Shown here: in pieces, positions 3,121 to 59,515 of the stretch
Numbering within the stretch: position 1 is the first letter of the stretch
Layout of the letters: every line of letters starts with the position of its first letter
Origin: an uncultured Acidobacteriota bacterium
GTDB taxonomy: Bacteria > Acidobacteriota > Terriglobia > Acidiferrales > UBA7541
Length of the DNA: 64,000 nt
Assembly (NCBI GenBank): GCA_963800095.1
Contig: CAWCZV010000015.1
Span: 35,661 to 99,660 of the forward strand
Reading direction: 5' to 3'
Program-made: the position numbers and the translations under genes
Notes under the pieces: model-generated
What the model was told of the DNA's origin: nothing
Seen by the model: only the letters and a program-made list of their open reading frames with translations
Database searches by the model: none

Positions 3121-3531
3121 CTACGGTTTCGTGTCTCCCGGACCGCCATCCCCAGCCGTTCCGCCGAAAATTCTGCGGCCATCGGGCAGGGTCACTCTGC
3201 GCGCGTCGGCGAGTTTAGAACCGTCTCTCGCCGGGTAACCGCCGACGATGACCTGATCTCCCACTTTTAAGGAATCCCGGCTCCAGCCTTGCCGGTGCAG
3301 CGAGCCCGGGCTCGCTGCCTCGCAGCCCCAGTTCGTCGTATTGCCCTTGTCGTCCTTCACATCGACGTAGAAATAGACGTGAGGATTCGTCCATTCAATT
3401 CTCGTGACGACGCCCTTCAGTTCGATCAGCTTGCTTCCGTCAAACTCCGCCGAAAAAGAATGGTGGGCAAGCGCGGGGATCGCCAGCGCCATGACGACGA
3501 TCGCGGCCAAAACAGCAAATAGTTTTCTCAC
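3121..3531 (-). CDS. Small secreted DUF6152-like protein, module copy 1
   Basis: GTG at 3531 gives MRKLFAVLAAIVVMALAIPALA|HHSFSAEFD...IEWTNPHVYFYVDV. It is paralogous to 10809..11207 and 58638..59048. The family name is from memory of the AHHSF...W.NPH signature. Confidence 0.65.
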   Translation of the reverse strand: MRKLFAVLAAIVVMALAIPALAHHSFSAEFDGSKLIELKGVVTRIEWTNPHVYFYVDVKDDKGNTTNWGCEAASPGSLHRQGWSRDSLKVGDQVIVGGYPARDGSKLADARRVTLPDGRRIFGGTAGDGGPGDTKP

Positions 3532-3620
3532 GAAACGCAATCTATAACAGCGGAAGAGAGCGGTCAAGCTGCGGGGGTGCGTTCCTTGACACCGAAGTAG
3601 CAGTCCGCTAGTTTACGCAC

Positions 3621-4454
3621 ATGCGACTTCTTATGGCGTGCAGCGTTATCGCTGCATCTCTCTGGGTGCACCCATCCGTCTCTGCACAAGCGACACCTCC
3701 CTCTGAAAACCCCTACAAGGAGTTGGGCAGCGAATCCGCGGGAATCAAATCGCCCGCGGGACCCCTAAAACCCACTCCGCGCACCGCGGATGGAAAGCCG
3801 GACCTTTCGGGATTTTGGAAAGGGCCGTTGATCTTCGGCGGCATGTTCAAGAGTGTAGGCGGACCGCCATTCACTCCGGCCGGAGATGAGGCGTACAAAA
3901 ACAACCTGGCGAAATCGATAAACCCGGAAGCCCTGTGCCTCTTTGCCGGGATACCGCGAGCCAGCATCAGCGGTGTACCTTTTGAAATTGTTCAGAACTC
4001 AAATCGCATCGCGTTCCTGTACGAACTGATGTGGACGTTTCGGACGGTCCCTATCGACGGCCGCGGACACCTGAAGGATTTTGAGCCCTCCTTTTTCGGA
4101 GACGGGGTTGGCAAGTGGGACGGCGACACGCTGGTCATCGACTCGATCGGATTCAAGGATAAGCTGAGCTGGATTGACGACGACGCGCATCCGCACAGCG
4201 ATGCCATGCACGTTGTCGAACGGTGGTCGCGGCCGGACGCGGATCATTTGGCGCACGAGGTGACGGTGGAAGATCCCAAGTTCTACACAAAGCCGTGGAC
4301 GTTTTCCAGGGTGTTCACGGCCATGCCTCCCGGCGATGAACTTTACGAATTCGCGTGCGACGAGAACAACGTAGACCGGGATGGCGGCCATTTGGGGTAC
4401 GGCCCGCTAAATCTTAAAACGTACCCGCTGAATCCACCCGCACCGAAAAAATAG
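3621..4454 (+). CDS. Secreted ~280-aa uncharacterised protein, partner of the DUF6152-like gene, module copy 1
   Basis: Has a signal peptide. Shares blocks with 11232..12050 and 57478..58380: DGKPDLSGFW, FLYE...RTVPIDGR, GDGVGKWDGDTLVIDS, HSDAMHVVERW, EDPKFYTKPWT. Confidence 0.65.
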   Translation: MRLLMACSVIAASLWVHPSVSAQATPPSENPYKELGSESAGIKSPAGPLKPTPRTADGKPDLSGFWKGPLIFGGMFKSVGGPPFTPAGDEAYKNNLAKSINPEALCLFAGIPRASISGVPFEIVQNSNRIAFLYELMWTFRTVPIDGRGHLKDFEPSFFGDGVGKWDGDTLVIDSIGFKDKLSWIDDDAHPHSDAMHVVERWSRPDADHLAHEVTVEDPKFYTKPWTFSRVFTAMPPGDELYEFACDENNVDRDGGHLGYGPLNLKTYPLNPPAPKK

Positions 4455-4518
4455 GGCTGTTGCACAACGCGGGGCATCAGGGATCTACAGCGGTCAGGCG
4501 CTCATGGAGGAATTGAAC

Positions 4519-5010
4519 ATGAACTCTCGAATGGGTCCACGTTCTCAATCGCTACTATTTGCAGCAATGGCAGCGGTGATCGTGCTTTCGGGCGCTCCGC
4601 GGGCGCGCGCCAAACAAGGGGGTGCCAGTCCTGCCGTTTCCGCGACGGAAAAACCTTACCTTGTCGAATGGGTTTACAAAGTGAAGTGGGGTTACGCGGA
4701 CGAATTCTGGCAGCTCTTTAAGAAATATCAAATCGCAACGCTAAACCGCGAGAAGGAACTCGGCTACGTCACATCCTATTCCGTCTACCGGCCGGGCTAT
4801 CACACGGGAGAAGACTCGCGATGGGAATTTCGCATCGTTATAGCCTACAAGAACATCTCTTCGTCCGGACACGGCAGTGAAGTGGAAAAGCAACTTTTCC
4901 CGGACCAGGCCACGATGAAACGCGAAGAAAATCGCCGCTGGGAACTCACGGAAGCGCACTACGATCTGCCGATTCACACCATCGATCCGAATGGAGACGG
5001 TACGGAGTAG
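4519..5010 (+). CDS. Small secreted hypothetical protein
   Basis: SD GGAGGA lies 8 nt before ATG 4519. The product has a signal peptide ending ARA. I recognise no motif. Confidence 0.5.
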   Translation: MNSRMGPRSQSLLFAAMAAVIVLSGAPRARAKQGGASPAVSATEKPYLVEWVYKVKWGYADEFWQLFKKYQIATLNREKELGYVTSYSVYRPGYHTGEDSRWEFRIVIAYKNISSSGHGSEVEKQLFPDQATMKREENRRWELTEAHYDLPIHTIDPNGDGTE

Positions 5011-5976: not shown

Positions 5977-6056
5977 TTGTGGCGCCGGCGTCTCGCCGGC
6001 GGTTTTTGCAAAGTCTGGAAATCGGGAAAATCGCCGGCGAGACGCCGGCGCCACAA
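5977..6056. repeat. 80-bp GC-rich compound palindrome (GTGGCGCCGGCG family), copy 1
   Basis: TTGTGGCGCCGGCGTCTCGCCGGCGG...spacer...CGCCGGCGAGACGCCGGCGCCACAA. Each arm can also fold on itself. A related copy lies at 13413..13489. Confidence 0.85.
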
Positions 6057-9621: not shown

Positions 9622-9693
9622 GTGGCACAGGCTTCAACCTGTGGGTTTTGGTCCTTGCAAGGACGAACCCCGACAGGCTGAAGCCTGCGCCAC
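9622..9693. repeat. Compound palindrome of the GGCTTCA(A/G)CC hairpin type
   Basis: GTGGCACAGGCTTCAACCTGTGGG and its inverted relative CCCGACAGGCTGAAGCCTGCGCCAC flank the central palindrome GTCCTTGCAAGGAC. The element sits between convergent genes. Confidence 0.8.
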
Positions 9694-10808: not shown

Positions 10809-11207
10809 TTGAGACACAAGTTTTCCACAATCTTGATCGCCATCCTCCTGTTGCTCGTAACGGCGCCGGCGTGGGCGCACCACTCGCCTTCCGCCGTCTT
10901 CGACATGTCGAAGGAATTCACGCTGACCGGCACTCTGACGAAAGTCGATTGGATCAATCCCCACATCGTCGTTTATCTGGACGCAAAGAAAGACGACGGC
11001 AGCGTGGAGAATTGGAAGTTCGAGAGCAACCCGCCATCCTGGTTCAGGCGCGTCTCCCTCGGCAGAGACGATTTTGCGAAAGCCATCGGGCAAACCGTCA
11101 CGGTACAAGGGGTGCGCGCCAAGGCTGGAGGGCTTTACGGCTATCTTTTGAAGATCACTTTCCCGGATGGGAACTCTCTGGAACTGGTGTTTAAACCGAC
11201 GCAATAG
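10809..11207 (+). CDS. Small secreted DUF6152-like protein, module copy 2
   Basis: SD AAAGGGAGG precedes TTG 10809. The product reads MRHKFSTILIAILLLLVTAPAWA|HHSPSAVFD...VDWINPHIVVYLD. Confidence 0.65.
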   Translation: MRHKFSTILIAILLLLVTAPAWAHHSPSAVFDMSKEFTLTGTLTKVDWINPHIVVYLDAKKDDGSVENWKFESNPPSWFRRVSLGRDDFAKAIGQTVTVQGVRAKAGGLYGYLLKITFPDGNSLELVFKPTQ

Positions 11208-11231
11208 TCAGTGACAAGGAGTATCCACGCC

Positions 11232-12050
11232 ATGACACACCGACTGATTCTCGTATTCTCGGCGGCGTTGCTTCTAGCCGGCCTCGCGACTGCCGACAAT
11301 AAGGACGCCGCAACGGCCAGCAAGGCGCCACGCGCCGCCGACGGGCATCCTGACCTGAACGGGATCTGGGCCTACGCGATCGATCTGCCTCCTGTAGCTC
11401 TGAAGAAAGTGATCAACGGAAAAGTTTCCAACACGGAGATTGACCAGAGCGCGGCAAAACCAGCAAAAAGACCCGTTCCGGGTGCGCTGGCTTCAACTCC
11501 CGCTCCAACCTACAAACCTGAGTTCCGGGAAAAAGTGAAAGATCTCTTTGACAATGAGAGCAAGACGGACGAAGTGTTCTATTGCGGAAAGCCCGGCGTT
11601 CCGCGCATCGGTCCGCCGCGCAGGATCATTCAACTCCCGACCGAGATGGTTTTCCTCTACGAAGACGTGTCGGGAGATCCTTACCGCATCATTCCTACCG
11701 ATGGCCGCGCGCACCGCAAGAACGCGAATCCCTCTTACTACGGAGATTCCGTTGCGCATTGGGAGGGAGATACGCTGGTGGTGGACGTTACCGATTTCGT
11801 GGAGAATGGCTGGTTCGGTGAAGGCGGGTACTTCCACACCGATGCGATGCACGTCACCGAACGTTTGTGGCGCGACGGCGAAAACCTCATCTGGCAAGCC
11901 TCGGTGGACGATCCGAAGGTGCTCGCGGCGCCCTGGACCATGCCTCCTCGCGTGATTACGCCGTCCGAAGATCCTCTGGAGGAATCACCTCCGTGCGTCG
12001 AGGACGATGGTCACCGGCTTCTGAACTCCGACCATCACCAACAACGCTAG
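11232..12050 (+). CDS. Secreted partner protein, module copy 2
   Basis: SD AAGGAG lies 10 nt before ATG 11232 and the product has a signal peptide. Shared blocks: DGHPDLNGIW, FLYEDVSGDPYRIIPTDGR, YYGDSVAHWEGDTLVVDV, HTDAMHVTERL, DDPKVLAAPWT. Confidence 0.65.
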   Translation: MTHRLILVFSAALLLAGLATADNKDAATASKAPRAADGHPDLNGIWAYAIDLPPVALKKVINGKVSNTEIDQSAAKPAKRPVPGALASTPAPTYKPEFREKVKDLFDNESKTDEVFYCGKPGVPRIGPPRRIIQLPTEMVFLYEDVSGDPYRIIPTDGRAHRKNANPSYYGDSVAHWEGDTLVVDVTDFVENGWFGEGGYFHTDAMHVTERLWRDGENLIWQASVDDPKVLAAPWTMPPRVITPSEDPLEESPPCVEDDGHRLLNSDHHQQR

Positions 12051-12210: not shown

Positions 12211-13380
12211 ATGAGAGACCTTCTAAAGCGCTACGCTAAATTGGCCGTAGGAAAACCGTTCTCGCCGGGCTTGCTAAACATTCTCGTGACTTCGGTTTGC
12301 GACATGCGCTGCACGCACTGCTTTTTCACCGAACAGCTCGATGACGGCCCGCGCAAAAAGCTGCAAATGACCAGGCGCGAAATTGAAAGAATCTCTGAAA
12401 CCCTTGGCGGAAATCTTGGCGTCTTGGTTCTCGCCGGCGGCGAGCCGTTCACGCGGAAGGACCTGCCGGAAATCGCTCGCGCCTTTCATAAAAACAACAA
12501 GCTCGAATCGGTCTACATCACCTCCAACGGCCAAATTCAGAAAAGAATCCTTCCCGATGTCGCGCGAATTCTGCAGGAGTGTCCGCGACTAAATGTCACC
12601 GTGGCTCTCGGCATCGACGGGCTGAAAGAGCAGCATGACAAGATTCGCCAGAAACTCGGCTCATGGGACATCGTCATTGACACCGCGCGCCGGCTCCAAG
12701 CCATGAAGAGGGAATATCCCCGCCTCGATGTGCAAACCTGCACTTGTTTCATGAACTCGAACCAGGACACGATTTTTGAATGGTACGATTTTGTGAAATA
12801 CGAGTTGAAGCCGGACAAAGTAAATTTCAACTACATCCGTCCTCCCGCGGCCGATTCCAAAGAACTCGAAATTGACGGCGCGCGATATGCCAGGCTCGCC
12901 GCCACGATCGATGAAGACTCGCGAAGCGGCGCGATCAAGAATCACTACGCAGGCGACACCGGCTTCTTCAAAGCCGCGCTGGATATTTATATGCACGGTC
13001 TGATCGCCAAGACCCAGGAAACGCAGAAGGCCCAGCTGACGTGTTACGCGGGAACAGCCGGCGGCGTGATCTACGACGAGGGAACGGTCTCGTCCTGCGA
13101 AAACCTGGAACCGGTCAGCAATTTGCGGGACTACGATTGGAATTTCCAGAAGCTCTGGCTCTCTCCCGCCATGCAGTCGCGCCGCAAAAAGGCCGCGGAT
13201 GGATGCTTCTGCACTCACGAATCAAATTGTTATTATCCGTCGCTGCCGTACAACCCAAAACATCTGATCCAGATTAAAATGCTGGAAAGAGAAATGAAGC
13301 ATGCATGGAATGGGTTGGACCACGCAAACCTAAGTCCGGATGACGCGCAGAAAAATCGATCTCCGTTAAACATTTCCTGA
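12211..13380 (+). CDS. Radical SAM enzyme with a Cys-rich C-terminal auxiliary-cluster (SPASM/twitch-like) region
   Basis: CDMRCTHC is a CX3CX2C motif near the N-terminus, and GGEPF is a SAM-binding block. The C-terminal cysteines are C-x17-C ... CFCTHESNC. The substrate is unknown. Confidence 0.75.
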   Translation: MRDLLKRYAKLAVGKPFSPGLLNILVTSVCDMRCTHCFFTEQLDDGPRKKLQMTRREIERISETLGGNLGVLVLAGGEPFTRKDLPEIARAFHKNNKLESVYITSNGQIQKRILPDVARILQECPRLNVTVALGIDGLKEQHDKIRQKLGSWDIVIDTARRLQAMKREYPRLDVQTCTCFMNSNQDTIFEWYDFVKYELKPDKVNFNYIRPPAADSKELEIDGARYARLAATIDEDSRSGAIKNHYAGDTGFFKAALDIYMHGLIAKTQETQKAQLTCYAGTAGGVIYDEGTVSSCENLEPVSNLRDYDWNFQKLWLSPAMQSRRKKAADGCFCTHESNCYYPSLPYNPKHLIQIKMLEREMKHAWNGLDHANLSPDDAQKNRSPLNIS

Positions 13381-13412: not shown

Positions 13413-13489
13413 GTGGCGCCGGCGGGACGCCGGCGGTTTTGCAACGTGTCGAAAACGGAAAAACCGCTGGCGGGACGCCGGCGCCACAA
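13413..13489. repeat. GC-rich compound palindrome (GTGGCGCCGGCG family), copy 2
   Basis: GTGGCGCCGGCGGGACGCCGGCGGTTTTGCAA...CCGCTGGCGGGACGCCGGCGCCACAA. It shares the arm sequence and the TTTTGCAA spacer start with 5977..6056. Confidence 0.85.
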
Positions 13490-13628
13490 CGCTTCGTCTC
13501 CATCTGATCACTCGGCTGAAATATAGTAAATTTCGGGCAAGGCTTCCAAGCTAGGAGCATGACAAATCCTGTAAACTCCTCTTGCATGTCGCCAATCAAT
13601 TCGTAGAACGAAGGGAAGTACGAATCGC

Positions 13629-15248
13629 GTGATCGAGACCCAAGTCCTCATCGTCGGCGCGGGACCCGTGGGCCTCACTCTCGCTCTTGATTTGGGCCGC
13701 CGGGGCGTGCGCTGCACGCTGATCGAGCGCAGCAAAACCTCGATCCAGCTTCCGAAGATGGAGCGCTGCAACGCCCGAACCATGGAGATCTACCGCCGGC
13801 TGGGCATCGGCGAACAGGTGCGCGATGCCGGCCTGCCGCGCAACGCGCCGATGGACGTCTTTCTGGCGCTTTCCATGGCGAGTCCTCCGCTCGTCCATTT
13901 GCCGTGCCCATCGGTGGCAGAGGCCAAAGCCGAAATCGCGGCGCACAATGACGGCGGCCTCCTCGAGCCATACCAATTAATCTCGCAATACACTCTTGAG
14001 CCGCTCCTGCGATCGATCGTCGAGAAGCTCCCCAATGTCACCGTTCGCTTCGGCTGCGAATTAATTTCATTCACGCAAGACGCCAACTCAGTGACCGCGA
14101 TCGTGCAACCGAATGACGCCGCGCAGGAAACGATGCGCGCATCGTATCTGGTCGGATGTGACGGCGGCTCCAGCACGGTTCGGAAACAGCTCGGCATTCC
14201 ATTGCAGGGCGAAGGAAATATCCGCAAGCTACGTCAGGCGCTATTCCGCTGCGACGATCTCTACGAGCGCATCCCCATGGGCAAGGGACGCCACTACCAC
14301 ATCGCCGAGGGACCGCTATTCCCATTCATCATCCTGCAAGACAGCACGCGCCACTGGACCCTGCACGCGGCCGCCTCCAGCGACGCGGAAATGGCGGAGA
14401 TCTTCAAGAAGTCACTGGCCATGCCGATTGAGTTCGAGATGCTTTCCGTCAATGAATGGACGCAACATCTTCTGTGCGCGGAGCGTTACGGCGAAGGCCG
14501 CGTTTTCGTCGCCGGAGACGCGGCGCACTTGGTCATCCCGACGGGCGGCCTTGGCATGAACACCGGCGTGGGGGATGCCGTCGATCTTTCCTGGAAGCTA
14601 GCCGCGACGCTGGCGGGATGGGGCGGCCCGCAACTGCTCGCATCCTACGAAGGTGAGCGCAGGCCGATCGGCTTGCGCAATGTGAAGGCCTCCCGCGCCG
14701 CGATGACCGGACGACTCGGCTGGCGCGCCGCCTATCGCCCCAATATCAGAGACAACACGCCCGAGGGCCGGGCCACGCGGGCCGAGATGGCTGCGCTTTT
14801 CAACATTCATCAGCGAAAAATTACGGAGATTTTAGGATTCGAGGCGGGCTACCGTTACGTGGACTCACCGATTATTTGCCGGGAGAATGGCGATGGCCCC
14901 GACCCGGACAACCCCTTTTACATCCCGACGACGTGGCCCGGCGCGCGCCTCCCGCATGTGTGGCTGAGCGACGGCGCCGCGCTGCACGATCGCCTTGGCG
15001 CGGGGCATACGTTGCTCCGACTCGGTGGGACGCATGTTGATACTTCAAGCCTGGAACGATCCTTTCGGGAAATCTACGCGCCGCTCGATGTACTCGATGT
15101 TCACGGAGAGAGGCCGCGCGATATCTACCAATTCGATTTGCTTCTCGTGAGGCCTGATTTGCACGTGGTCTGGCGCGGCAATGAGCTTCCTCAAGATGCT
15201 GCAAAAATCGCGATGGTCGCCACAGGGCGCATTCCCTCCCGCCTCTGA
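13629..15248 (+). CDS. FAD-dependent monooxygenase (PheA/TfdB-like aromatic hydroxylase)
   Basis: VLIVGAGPVGLTLALDL is a GxGxxG motif and FVAGDAAHLVIPTGGLGMNTG is the FAD motif. 539 aa. Confidence 0.8.
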   Translation: MIETQVLIVGAGPVGLTLALDLGRRGVRCTLIERSKTSIQLPKMERCNARTMEIYRRLGIGEQVRDAGLPRNAPMDVFLALSMASPPLVHLPCPSVAEAKAEIAAHNDGGLLEPYQLISQYTLEPLLRSIVEKLPNVTVRFGCELISFTQDANSVTAIVQPNDAAQETMRASYLVGCDGGSSTVRKQLGIPLQGEGNIRKLRQALFRCDDLYERIPMGKGRHYHIAEGPLFPFIILQDSTRHWTLHAAASSDAEMAEIFKKSLAMPIEFEMLSVNEWTQHLLCAERYGEGRVFVAGDAAHLVIPTGGLGMNTGVGDAVDLSWKLAATLAGWGGPQLLASYEGERRPIGLRNVKASRAAMTGRLGWRAAYRPNIRDNTPEGRATRAEMAALFNIHQRKITEILGFEAGYRYVDSPIICRENGDGPDPDNPFYIPTTWPGARLPHVWLSDGAALHDRLGAGHTLLRLGGTHVDTSSLERSFREIYAPLDVLDVHGERPRDIYQFDLLLVRPDLHVVWRGNELPQDAAKIAMVATGRIPSRL

Positions 15249-57016: not shown

Positions 57017-57477
57017 TGTTCGTTGCCAATGATTCCAGTTGCGATTTGAAGAATGACCTTCCTAGGGAGCCTCGGCATGGGACCACCATGAATGGCGCGA
57101 GGACTCTATTTTTGCCGGATATCAGATGAACCTCGTATTTCCCATTCTTATAGCACCAATATGATCAAGAAACTAGGAGGGGACCAAAAATCAATTCAAT
57201 AGGCTGGTAAAGATCTGAAAGTACAAAATAGGTTGGTCTTCCTGAATGGTGGCTTTTCACGGAATTACCCGTTGATTGGCTGCTAACAGTCCACAGCAAC
57301 CCGTGAACCGCAGGTGTAGCCGAATTTGTCCGTACGTGGTAGTACCCCGCGCGTTGCTTGACCCTTGTGGCCTGCTTGAATAGACTGGCCGCTCAAACGG
57401 CCTATTTGAGCGGGTTGTTGTTGCTTGAGTGAGCGCAGCGGCCTGAATCGGAGGGCCGGTCTTCGGAGGAGGTGGTC

Positions 57478-58380
57478 ATGCGAAAGCGTGCGGTGTTTTT
57501 GGCAATTTTTCCGCTGATTGCGGCGCTGGCCTTTCAGATCGCCGCGTCTGCTCAAAATGCGCAGGATGGACCGAAGGCAACCTGGCCGGATCCGGTCTGG
57601 AATAGACCGCCGATCGCGCCGGCGGACCGCAGGCCCGCTCCAAAGCGAAATTTGACCGGCATGTGGGGGACGCTCGCGGCAGGCTCTGGAATCCAGGCCG
57701 GCGGCGTGCAATTGAAGCCCAACAACGGCCAGCCAGAAAACGCTCTCCCGTACACGCCGTACGGTCTTGAGCTGTACAAATCGCACAAGGCGCTTGAGGG
57801 CGCCGACGCGGTCCTGCCCATGCAGACCAACGATCCCCGGAACAAGTGCGAGCCGTTGGGAATACCGCGCTACAATCACTACAACCTCCGGCTGACGCAG
57901 ATCTTCCAGGACGATTACAAAGTGGCGATCCTGTATCACTACGACAACCGCTGGCGCGTCATTTGGACCGACGGGAGGCCGTTGCCCAAACTACTGGACG
58001 GCGCCGTCGAACTGGACGGACAGATCCGCGAACAGCGGTTTTTCGGTTATTCGGTAGGCAAATGGCTGGACGATTATACTTTCCAGGTCGATACGGTCGG
58101 AACGATGCCGGAAGATCGCGTCTGGCTTGATTCCACCGGCCGGCCCATCAGCGACCAGATACACGTGACAGAAACCTTCCATCGCATCAGCGCCGATGAA
58201 ATGGAATGGTCAGAGACGATCGAGGATCCGAAGGTTTACACCAAGCCGTGGGAAACCATGAAAATGCCCCTGCGATTGCAGGATCCCCGCACCGATATTA
58301 TGGAGTATTACTGCTCGCCCGTGGAGGCCGAGAATTACAACAAGCGTTTCGGCAGCGCCACAGGCGCGAATGGCAAGTAA
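57478..58380 (+). CDS. Secreted partner protein, module copy 3
   Basis: SD GGAGGAGG precedes ATG 57478 and the product has a signal peptide. Shared blocks: NLTGMWG, ILYHYDNRWRVIWTDGR, FFGYSVGKWLDDYTFQVDT, ISDQIHVTETF, EDPKVYTKPWE. Confidence 0.65.
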   Translation: MRKRAVFLAIFPLIAALAFQIAASAQNAQDGPKATWPDPVWNRPPIAPADRRPAPKRNLTGMWGTLAAGSGIQAGGVQLKPNNGQPENALPYTPYGLELYKSHKALEGADAVLPMQTNDPRNKCEPLGIPRYNHYNLRLTQIFQDDYKVAILYHYDNRWRVIWTDGRPLPKLLDGAVELDGQIREQRFFGYSVGKWLDDYTFQVDTVGTMPEDRVWLDSTGRPISDQIHVTETFHRISADEMEWSETIEDPKVYTKPWETMKMPLRLQDPRTDIMEYYCSPVEAENYNKRFGSATGANGK

Positions 58381-58637
58381 GCCGAACCTGGTTTCCGCGA
58401 CCTTGATTGGCGGACCCGCCGCAGGCCCGACACTTAGGTAATCAAATTGGGTAACGCAACGTCACACCGGCGGTGTGATGGGCGCGACACGTTCGCCAGT
58501 TTCTGGACACTTCCTAAATGGCTGGATGATTGGAGTATACTTGCGCCAATCGTCGGAAGGCGGGCCGACACCAAGCCATCGTCAAGATCAGGAGACCTAT
58601 CACTCTAGAATATCGGCCTTGACAGAACGGAGGAGCA

Positions 58638-59048
58638 ATGAGAAACAAGTTTGTTGTCTTCGTGGTTCTCGTCATTGGACTGGTGATATCAGCGCCGTTG
58701 TTCGCGCACCATGGCGCCGCATCGTTTGACATCGAGAAGAAAGTGGTCCTCAAAGGGACCGTCAAGGAGTGGCTCTACTCCAATCCGCACTGCTTGTTGA
58801 CCATCGAAGTGAAAGGCGAAGACGGCAAAGTGACGGAGTGGATTGCCGAGACCCAGTCTCCCGCCGTGACGTACCCGGCCGGTTATCGCAAGAATTCTTT
58901 TAAGCCCGGCGATCAGGTGACGGTAAAGATTGAACCGGTCAAGAGCGGCCAGCCAGCCGGTCGCATCATCGCCGTACTGACGGCGGACGGTACCCAACTG
59001 GGTGATTCGAGCTCTCAGCCCGTCAAGGGCGTTACGGAGTTGAAGTAA
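58638..59048 (+). CDS. Small secreted DUF6152-like protein, module copy 3
   Basis: SD GGAGGAG precedes ATG 58638. The product reads MRNKFVVFVVLVIGLVISAPLFA|HHGAASFD...WLYSNPHCLLTIEV. Confidence 0.65.
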   Translation: MRNKFVVFVVLVIGLVISAPLFAHHGAASFDIEKKVVLKGTVKEWLYSNPHCLLTIEVKGEDGKVTEWIAETQSPAVTYPAGYRKNSFKPGDQVTVKIEPVKSGQPAGRIIAVLTADGTQLGDSSSQPVKGVTELK

Positions 59049-59515
59049 TAGTCCGGAAATCCTGACCGATGGGCCGCCTGCCCGGGCGGCTTATCGGTCA
59101 CAGTGACGGGCGATTTGAAGACCCGGGCCGAACTCCCATCTTCTTCGTTCTATCAATCATCCATTGACGGTGGCACCTTGACGGTAAGGGATATAGGGCG
59201 AGCCAAAGTTGCCCCCTGTGCCAGATTTTGGGTTGGGGAGACTCAATGTCGGAGTGGCAATGTGAAACTATCGGTGCAATGAAAGGGATTCAGAAACCAG
59301 AATAGTGCGTTTGATCGGTTTCGGATTGGATCACTGCATCACTTCCGAATCATCTGGGTGGATGGCAAACCCCAGCGTCTTACCAAGATGGAATATTGAC
59401 CGCCTTTACGATCCTGTTGGTGGCGATGTGTTTGTGGATTGCAAGCGGATCGCTGACTACAAAACAATGTCTACGGTCCTCCTCAACCACGACTTGTCCG
59501 TGTCCACGAGAACCG

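Follow-up and report, generated by a model that had tools for sequence, protein, structure and literature searches.

The hallmark of a histidine-brace protein is an N-terminal histidine that is unmasked when the signal peptide is cleaved (PMC10952591). Bacterial histidine-brace proteins typically pair with a partner in the envelope, as CopC does with CopD and YcnI with YcnJ (PMC10952591). Here we describe a pair of predicted secreted proteins whose genes occur three times in a 64-kb stretch of DNA from an uncultured Acidobacteriota bacterium; this whole stretch is called the window below. One protein of the pair, S, is a small DUF6152 protein and the other, L, is a partner of about 280 amino acids, and the copies are numbered 1 to 3. 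The known carriers of the histidine brace have beta-sandwich, immunoglobulin-like or cupredoxin-like folds. Two further periplasmic proteins are relevant to the comparison. The metal site of CusF is made up of Met, Met, His and Trp, and ZinT (YodA) is a metal-binding barrel of the calycin type.

A co-inherited two-gene module

S and L make up a conserved, co-inherited, two-gene extracytoplasmic module whose members diverge in step and move together. To measure pairing we used 160 loci from other organisms, of which 80 came from genomes and were anchored on L, and 80 came from metagenomes and were anchored on S. The L-anchored loci contain 134 L and 77 S genes; for 73 of these 77, an L gene is no more than 300 bp away, against about 14% expected (P about 1e-57). 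In the S-anchored loci an adjacent L was found for 56 of the 66 S genes for which this could be determined (P about 4e-25). The two families had been predicted to occur together more often than by chance in Acidobacteriota and Proteobacteria, and they do; chance co-location is ruled out by these adjacency statistics. The pair was seen in more than 100 loci. It occurs in Terriglobia, Bryobacterales and Vicinamibacterales and in metagenome-assembled genomes (MAGs) of Gamma-, Alpha- and Betaproteobacteria. Among cultured organisms it is carried on plasmids of Novosphingobium, Sphingobium and Croceibacterium; the carriers include Novosphingobium humi, Sphingobium sp. TomTYG65 and Croceibacterium atlanticum.

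The divergence of S tracks that of L. Across 122 adjacent pairs the identity matrices of the two proteins correlate with r = 0.84, and with r = 0.46 when only comparisons below 50% identity are used. The observed correlation was reached by none of the 500 permutations in a Mantel test. Paralogous modules within one locus are also matched in their divergence: in the window, S-S identities of 0.29, 0.30 and 0.33 correspond to L-L identities of 0.26, 0.31 and 0.33. In Novosphingobium the S and L genes overlap by 4 nt.

The window holds three S and three L genes, and a tblastn search across the 64 kb found no fourth copy of either. The open reading frame (ORF) lists agree with the original prediction in the six genes, their strands and the gaps of 89, 24 and 257 nt. 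The features of the three copies are as follows.

3121..3531, minus strand: S1, DUF6152 protein of 136 amino acids (ORF; Pfam DUF6152, E 1.7e-32)
3532..3620, unstranded: divergent S1-L1 intergenic region of 89 nt, with a promoter-like match on the minus strand
3621..4454, plus strand: L1, secreted partner of 277 amino acids, predicted calycin/FABP-like beta-barrel (ORF; AlphaFold2 and Foldseek)
4504..5010, plus strand: predicted secreted protein of 168 amino acids, third gene in the copy-1 cluster (ORF)
10809..11207, plus strand: S2, DUF6152 protein of 132 amino acids (ORF; Pfam, E 7.8e-22)
11232..12050, plus strand: L2, partner of 272 amino acids from the ATG at 11232 (ORF; homology to L1 and L3)
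57297..59468, plus strand: 2.17-kb segment containing only L3 and S3 (blastn against locus L164 of a related genome)
57478..58380, plus strand: L3, partner of 300 amino acids (ORF; orthologues P0121-P0139)
58638..59048, plus strand: S3, DUF6152 protein of 136 amino acids (ORF; Pfam, E 5.2e-29)

The three pairs are arranged divergently, with S before L (S>L) and with L before S (L>S), respectively. The second pair has the operon-like order S>L, and 24 nt separate the S2 stop from the ATG of L2; an alternative GTG start at 11211 would give a protein of 279 amino acids and a distance of 3 nt. L3 likewise has an alternative GTG start, at 57472, which would give 302 amino acids. The 257-nt gap of the L>S pair recurs in five other contigs with one identical L3-type protein.

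The copies are old paralogues, as had been proposed from an estimated identity of roughly 30%; the measured values span 28-39%. Homology among the L proteins is clear, with 28-34% identity (BLASTP E 1e-9 to 1e-29), the S proteins share 30-39% (E 1e-16 to 1e-27), and the short motif blocks first picked out in each family are visible in the alignments. No homology between S and L was detected by hhalign (probability 1.5%). By eye, a basic n-region, a hydrophobic h-region and a small residue at position -1 can be recognised in each of the six N-termini, consistent with the signal peptides claimed for them.

In nearly all clades of L the order S>L prevails, with a median gap between the domains of 27 nt. 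The divergent order belongs to the copy-1 orthologue clade, which contains 45 of 48 divergent pairs, and the L>S order is found in a few small clades. With S>L as the default, a single derived event accounts for the divergent order and a second for L>S, so that two rearrangements suffice. The three arrangements are real, and the three independent rearrangements first suggested are not needed.

The third pair sits as a unit in two contexts. The segment 57297-59468 has a 95% identical counterpart in a related MAG (L164) and the flanks on either side are unrelated by blastn, while the copy-1/copy-2 region shows synteny with this MAG at about 90%. No terminal repeats were found around the 2.17-kb segment. 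The relocated segment is followed, about 1.7 kb downstream, by an IS1595-family transposase gene (L164:9294-10220), and in sister contigs it is preceded by a MazE-like gene; these neighbours may be relevant to the change of context. The related MAG (L001 and L164; GenBank DATNIO01) is labelled 'Verrucomicrobiia bacterium SMAG_U11375', and its DNA is 90-95% identical to the window. Since the other close relatives are all labelled Acidobacteriota or Terriglobia, the name probably reflects a mistake in binning or classification, and the most likely source of the window is a Terriglobia genome.

The pairing is not obligate, contrary to what was first proposed. There is no S within 1.5 kb of 42 of the 134 L genes (about 31%), and 29 of these have none in the whole locus of 10 kb on either side. 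The L genes without S include an entire Bryobacterales sister clade that is 70-75% identical to L1. Conversely, 10 of the 66 S genes have no adjacent L, and the neighbours are then a di-haem cytochrome c, DUF6644 membrane proteins or a major facilitator superfamily (MFS) transporter. The stoichiometry varies too: S-L-L and L-L-L-L arrays occur, and together with L-L fusions the S-L-L arrays indicate that the ratio of S to L is not fixed at 1:1. No fusion of S with L was present among 435 proteins.

In the copy-1 cluster, a sigma-70-like -35/-10 match, to the consensus only, lies on the minus strand at 3567-3539 and ends 8 nt upstream of the S1 ATG at 3531. Its position favours this ATG over a longer reading from a TTG at 3567, and would imply a very short or absent leader. 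No conserved operator-like element was found across 48 orthologous divergent pairs, only a TTGAC-like promoter element. The 168-amino-acid gene (4504-5010) begins 50 nt downstream of L1. A homologue is found at the same position in 19 loci, all of the copy-1 clade, and no Pfam model matches the protein even at E<=1; the protein may be a third component of this cluster, specific to the lineage.

The small protein and its partner

The S proteins are members of DUF6152 (PF19649). S1, S2 and S3 score 111.9, 77.6 and 100.6 bits against the family model, covering positions 2-96 of 98, and the gathering cut-off is 27 bits; the family named in the original prediction is thus the right one. The family entry says only that this is a domain of unknown function. 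The family has more than 7,500 clusters at 90% identity, and literature searches found no papers on DUF6152 or PF19649. No sequence relative of S was found in the PDB by profile search; these searches, for S and for L, used alignments of 3, 37 and 41 sequences.

The AlphaFold2 model of S has a predicted local distance difference test (pLDDT) score of 81. Five strands form a barrel, and a helix separates strand 3 from strand 4 (strands 36-47, 52-59 and 65-72, helix 75-80, strands 93-101 and 107-114). The Foldseek matches are OB folds, namely the LysRS N-domain, SSB, PriB and Rim1, with E from 3e-4 to 1e-3 and target TM scores of up to 0.73. S is therefore predicted to have an OB fold.

Conservation was examined in 58 S sequences with less than 70% identity. 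H23, H24, N49, P50 and H51 are conserved in all of them, and the distance from the His-His (HH) motif to the Asn-Pro-His (NPH) motif is constant at 23-24 residues. The His-His motif is preceded in these diverse sequences by a hydrophobic h-region and then P(-4)-x-x-A(-1), with Ala at -1 in 54 and Pro at -4 in 44 of the 58. S1 has the predicted signal peptide MRKLFAVLAAIVVMALAIPALA, after which the mature N-terminus would read HHSFSAEFD, and its NPH motif is residues 49-51; the predicted signal peptide of S2 ends in APAWA and is followed by HHSPSAVFD. The simplest reading of this pattern is that signal peptidase cuts between Ala and His-His, which would make His-His the mature N-terminus. The invariant H24 and H51 are candidate further ligands beside the N-terminal histidine, for copper coordination of the T-shaped, three-nitrogen kind that defines a histidine brace. 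S has no conserved methionine. None of the available descriptions of DUF6152 mentions an OB fold, a His-His mature N-terminus or a partnership with L.

L belongs to no described family, as had been proposed. L1-L3 have no Pfam or NCBIfam match at E<=0.1, and the PDB profile searches found no sequence relative. The family comprises 17,022 representative clusters at 50% identity (E<=1e-3), or 9,132 at E<=1e-10, and more than 5,500 clusters at 90% identity, all labelled hypothetical. It is one of the larger protein families without an entry in a profile database.

The AlphaFold2 model of L has a pLDDT of 67 overall and about 90 in the core (residues 120-235). It consists of one strand, two helices and eight antiparallel strands in this order. 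At least the top 30 Foldseek matches are CRABP, FABP and CRBP proteins (E 6e-4, probability 1.0, target TM 0.53-0.58, root-mean-square deviation 5.6-7 Å). These matches and the order of the elements suggest a barrel of the calycin type, and L is predicted, on a moderate match, to be a calycin/FABP-like beta-barrel. Membership of the lipocalin or FABP families by sequence was considered and rejected, since there is no Pfam or NCBIfam hit and L has a signal peptide rather than being cytosolic. Across 220 diverse L sequences the conserved residues are a cysteine pair, C106 and C246, together with W66, R141, W166, E200, R201, D218 and E243. H197, part of the H.D.MHV.E block, is not universal among them.

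Tandem L-L fusions of 470-527 amino acids account for about 25 of the best profile matches (P0135-P0165, such as P0140, P0149 and P0161; also L161:8001-9455). The many doublets suggest that L works as a dimer or pseudo-dimer. A DUF6152 gene lies 24-44 nt upstream of the doublet in three of the four sampled. Apart from the doublets, the only fusions found are L+DUF3471 and CarboxypepD_reg+L.

Neighbouring genes and other partners

The window genes around copies 1 and 2 are those first named, by Pfam a TauD, a FAD_binding_3 monooxygenase, an alpha/beta hydrolase, an MFS transporter, a 6PGDH-type dehydrogenase and a radical SAM protein. Copies 1 and 2 do bracket this oxygenase-rich block in the window. 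The arrangement does not hold beyond the closest relatives, in which the second pair is found in 4-5 loci and single genes of the block in 9-19. The copy-2 pair accompanies the copy-1 region only in the nearest relatives (L001-L003 and L013), and the TauD, FAD monooxygenase and MFS genes are kept in 9-10 loci.

The radical SAM gene (12211-13380, plus strand) and a gene for a protein of 539 amino acids (13629-15248, plus strand) are found beside S2-L2 only in the 4-5 closest relatives (L001-L004, L013), and this association looks lineage-specific. GC-rich, near-perfect hairpins with stems of about 28 bp and -50 to -63 kcal/mol follow the stops of the TauD gene (5980-6056), the MFS gene (9622-9692) and the radical SAM gene (13413-13495). 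The first and the last have the common sequence GTGGCGCCGGCG..., of which related copies are present in the syntenic MAG locus L001. The common sequence makes them look like a repeat of the repetitive extragenic palindromic (REP) kind or like strong terminators.

No third gene family is conserved beside the module. Among 131 non-redundant flanking genes no family occurs in more than five clusters; the Pfam counts are led by SMP-30/gluconolactonase (5), metallo-beta-lactamase (4) and amidohydrolase (3). Tannase, carboxylesterase, PQQ dehydrogenase, aldo-keto reductase, MFS and periplasmic binding proteins were each counted twice. The only broad theme is one of varied hydrolases, oxidoreductases and transporters. 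An MFS gene directly precedes S in several operons, including operons of the form MFS-S-LL, and TonB-dependent receptors adjoin the module in Sphingomonads. In two cultured strains TetR and MarR regulators are adjacent to it.

A link to sulfonates had been suggested by the TauD gene in the window, and a second, independent anecdote comes from Sphingobium. An L-S-L-S array lies there among two luciferase-like monooxygenases (LLM) of the SsuD/DszA type, a peroxiredoxin, an NMT1-type binding protein, a TonB-dependent receptor and a TauD. This cluster resembles an organosulfur island and echoes the TauD beside copy 1. A general organosulfur theme was nevertheless rejected: TauD is confined to the copy-1 lineage, and homologues of the LLM, NMT1 and peroxiredoxin genes are absent from the 160 loci.

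S has two other recurrent partners, neither of which is in the window. A secreted protein of 380-410 amino acids is encoded directly downstream of S in 10 of 160 loci. Two CxxCH haem motifs mark the part that weakly matches CytoC_RC, and a beta-rich domain at the C-terminus weakly matches DUF6544 and DUF4292. The arrangements seen are MFS-S-cytochrome without L, and S-cytochrome-L. The second partner is a tandem of DUF6644 membrane proteins, weakly related to DUF2214, which adjoins S in 13 of 161 loci; such tandems recur beside S in Acidobacteriota and on Novosphingobium and Sphingobium plasmids. Literature searches found no papers on DUF6644 or PF20349. Examples of both are listed here by locus.

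L156:6474-7706, L155:6547-7743, L147:6528-7700, L120:759-1943, L142:796-1953, L154:579-1724, L012:3831-5054: di-haem cytochrome genes, downstream of S
L008:8480-9458, L150:4787-5764, L123:6452-7520, L169:4152-5127, L171:9436-10454: tandem pairs of DUF6644 genes, next to DUF6152

Possible functions and known systems

Our best guess, which we put forward tentatively, is that the module combines a periplasmic ligand-holding barrel with a metal-binding OB protein in the uptake or catabolism of small molecules. L would hold a small, probably hydrophobic or aromatic, ligand inside its barrel. S would carry a metal site on the N-terminal histidine unmasked by secretion, either of the copper histidine-brace type or for another divalent metal. 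In the periplasm the two may act jointly on small organic molecules, either as a complex or one after the other. The molecules would then be imported and degraded by the products of neighbouring genes, which include MFS and TonB-dependent transporters, hydrolases, lactonases and oxygenases, with TetR and MarR regulators. The expansion of paralogues, with three pairs in 64 kb, could widen the range of substrates. S would be a modular accessory, and in a minority of lineages a di-haem cytochrome c or DUF6644 may replace or join L; this partnering hints at redox or transfer chemistry at the S site.

Several points weigh against this proposal. Metal binding by S is read from a sequence pattern alone, and searches of the PDB, Pfam, NCBIfam and the literature found no solved structure or characterised homologue of S or L. 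We know of no OB fold among the carriers of the histidine brace, and hhalign detected no homology between S and CusF. Copper-homeostasis and other metal genes are not prominent in the Pfam counts of the S-L neighbours. L lacks universally conserved residues of a metal-binding type, and its match to FABP is moderate. The link to catabolism is circumstantial, as there is no conserved third family and catabolic genes of this sort are common in these genomes. L is evidently able to function without S, which is missing from the vicinity of 31% of L genes, and S-L fusions are absent from the 435 proteins.

A different role, in the acquisition or trafficking of metals in the periplasm, is conceivable but doubtful. 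S would be a metallochaperone, with the His-His and NPH motifs as its site, and would exchange metal with L, a calycin for metals or metallophores like ZinT or siderocalin, and with membrane proteins such as DUF6644. This would make good use of the invariant three-histidine motif of S with its unmasked N-terminal histidine, and there are precedents in CusF, a periplasmic OB-fold metallochaperone, and in the metal-binding calycin ZinT. The DUF6644 tandems beside S, in the 13 loci and on the two Sphingomonad plasmids, and the TonB-dependent receptors that adjoin the pair in Sphingomonads also fit such a role. The gene neighbourhoods do not: among the 25 commonest families of neighbours there is no metal-responsive regulator, P-type ATPase, RND pump, CopC/CopD, PCuAC or multicopper oxidase. 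For metal homeostasis it would also be unusual to have at least three paralogous pairs in a genome, with highly varied catabolic neighbours. L has no conserved cluster of His, Cys or Met beyond its one cysteine pair, H197 not being universal, and the hhalign probability of S against CusF is 2.3%.

It is about equally doubtful that the two proteins are only loosely coupled. S would then be a general periplasmic accessory, for example an electron or metal relay, serving L, the di-haem cytochrome c and DUF6644, L would bind ligands or act as an enzyme independently, and adjacency would reflect co-regulation and not a complex. The exceptions to pairing are what this explanation accounts for best: S without L beside a cytochrome c, an MFS transporter or DUF6644, L without S in 31% of cases including the whole clade near L1, the variable stoichiometry of S-L-L and L-L-L-L arrays and L-L fusions, and the lack of any S-L fusion. 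It accounts poorly for the 85-95% of S genes that adjoin an L, for the tight default spacing and the 4-nt overlap in Novosphingobium, and for the placing of S 24-44 nt before most sampled L-L doublets. The strong co-divergence, which extends to paralogues of one genome, and the relocation of the pair as a unit likewise argue for a closer relation.

A more specific possibility, and a very unlikely one, is that DUF6152 houses a histidine-brace copper centre on an OB fold that receives electrons from periplasmic c-type cytochromes. The calycin partner would hold the substrate, and the two components would together make up a periplasmic copper oxygenase or peroxygenase for small hydrophobic or aromatic molecules. 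If true, this would be a widespread and wholly undescribed enzyme class of soil bacteria.

Very unlikely, finally, is a role as envelope carriers of lipids or other hydrophobic molecules with no part in catabolism, in which L, like an FABP, would ferry lipids, hopanoids or quinones across the periplasm and S would serve as a docking or accessory subunit: it would suit the FABP/CRABP-like predicted fold of L, the predicted export of both proteins, the weak match of the cytochrome partner's C-terminal beta-rich domain to DUF6544/DUF4292 types and a copy-3 orthologue about 3.5 kb from MlaDEF genes, but no Mla neighbourhood is present in the window, housekeeping carriers rarely have many diverged paralogues in variable catabolic contexts, and the invariant His-His and NPH of S would be left unexplained.

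The preferred proposal, of a ligand-holding barrel working with a metal-binding OB protein, can be set beside the known systems. S resembles the histidine-brace proteins (LPMOs, CopC, X325/Bim1, YcnI and the PmoB site) in its predicted secretion, with an invariant histidine that cleavage would expose at the N-terminus and at least one further invariant histidine as a candidate ligand. It differs from them in having a second invariant histidine, at what would be position 2, and in its predicted OB fold. A brace in S, if present, would therefore be on a new scaffold and S would not be a member of a known family. CusF and SilF, periplasmic chaperones for Cu(I)/Ag(I), are like the predicted S in being small exported five-stranded barrels with histidines near the mature N-terminus, and CusF shows that a periplasmic OB fold can bear a metal site. 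Besides the low hhalign score, S differs from CusF in lacking a conserved methionine and in having no CusCBA-type genes nearby.

The model of L has the order of FABP, CRABP and CRBP, a strand and two helices followed by antiparallel strands. L differs from these proteins in several respects: it has no detectable sequence similarity to them, is about twice as long, is exported, has a cysteine pair and an N-terminal extension of about 50 residues, and is often found as L-L fusions. ZinT/YodA is, as predicted for L, a bacterial calycin-type barrel of the periplasm. Compared by description and sequence with ZinT/YodA, L has no conserved histidine cluster and no sequence match.

Acidobacteriota, a phylum that is dominant in soil and poorly understood, have both families in abundance, and cultured, tractable Sphingomonads carry them too. 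The predicted His-His mature N-terminus of an exported OB protein points to a metal site unmasked by secretion, and if copper binds S, histidine-brace chemistry would extend to a new scaffold and to small-molecule metabolism. Even if the metal idea fails, the annotation of tens of thousands of hypothetical genes can start from this co-inherited modular unit. No system that combines components of the S and L types has been described: the folds of S and L are familiar, the pair is undescribed and the L family is uncatalogued.

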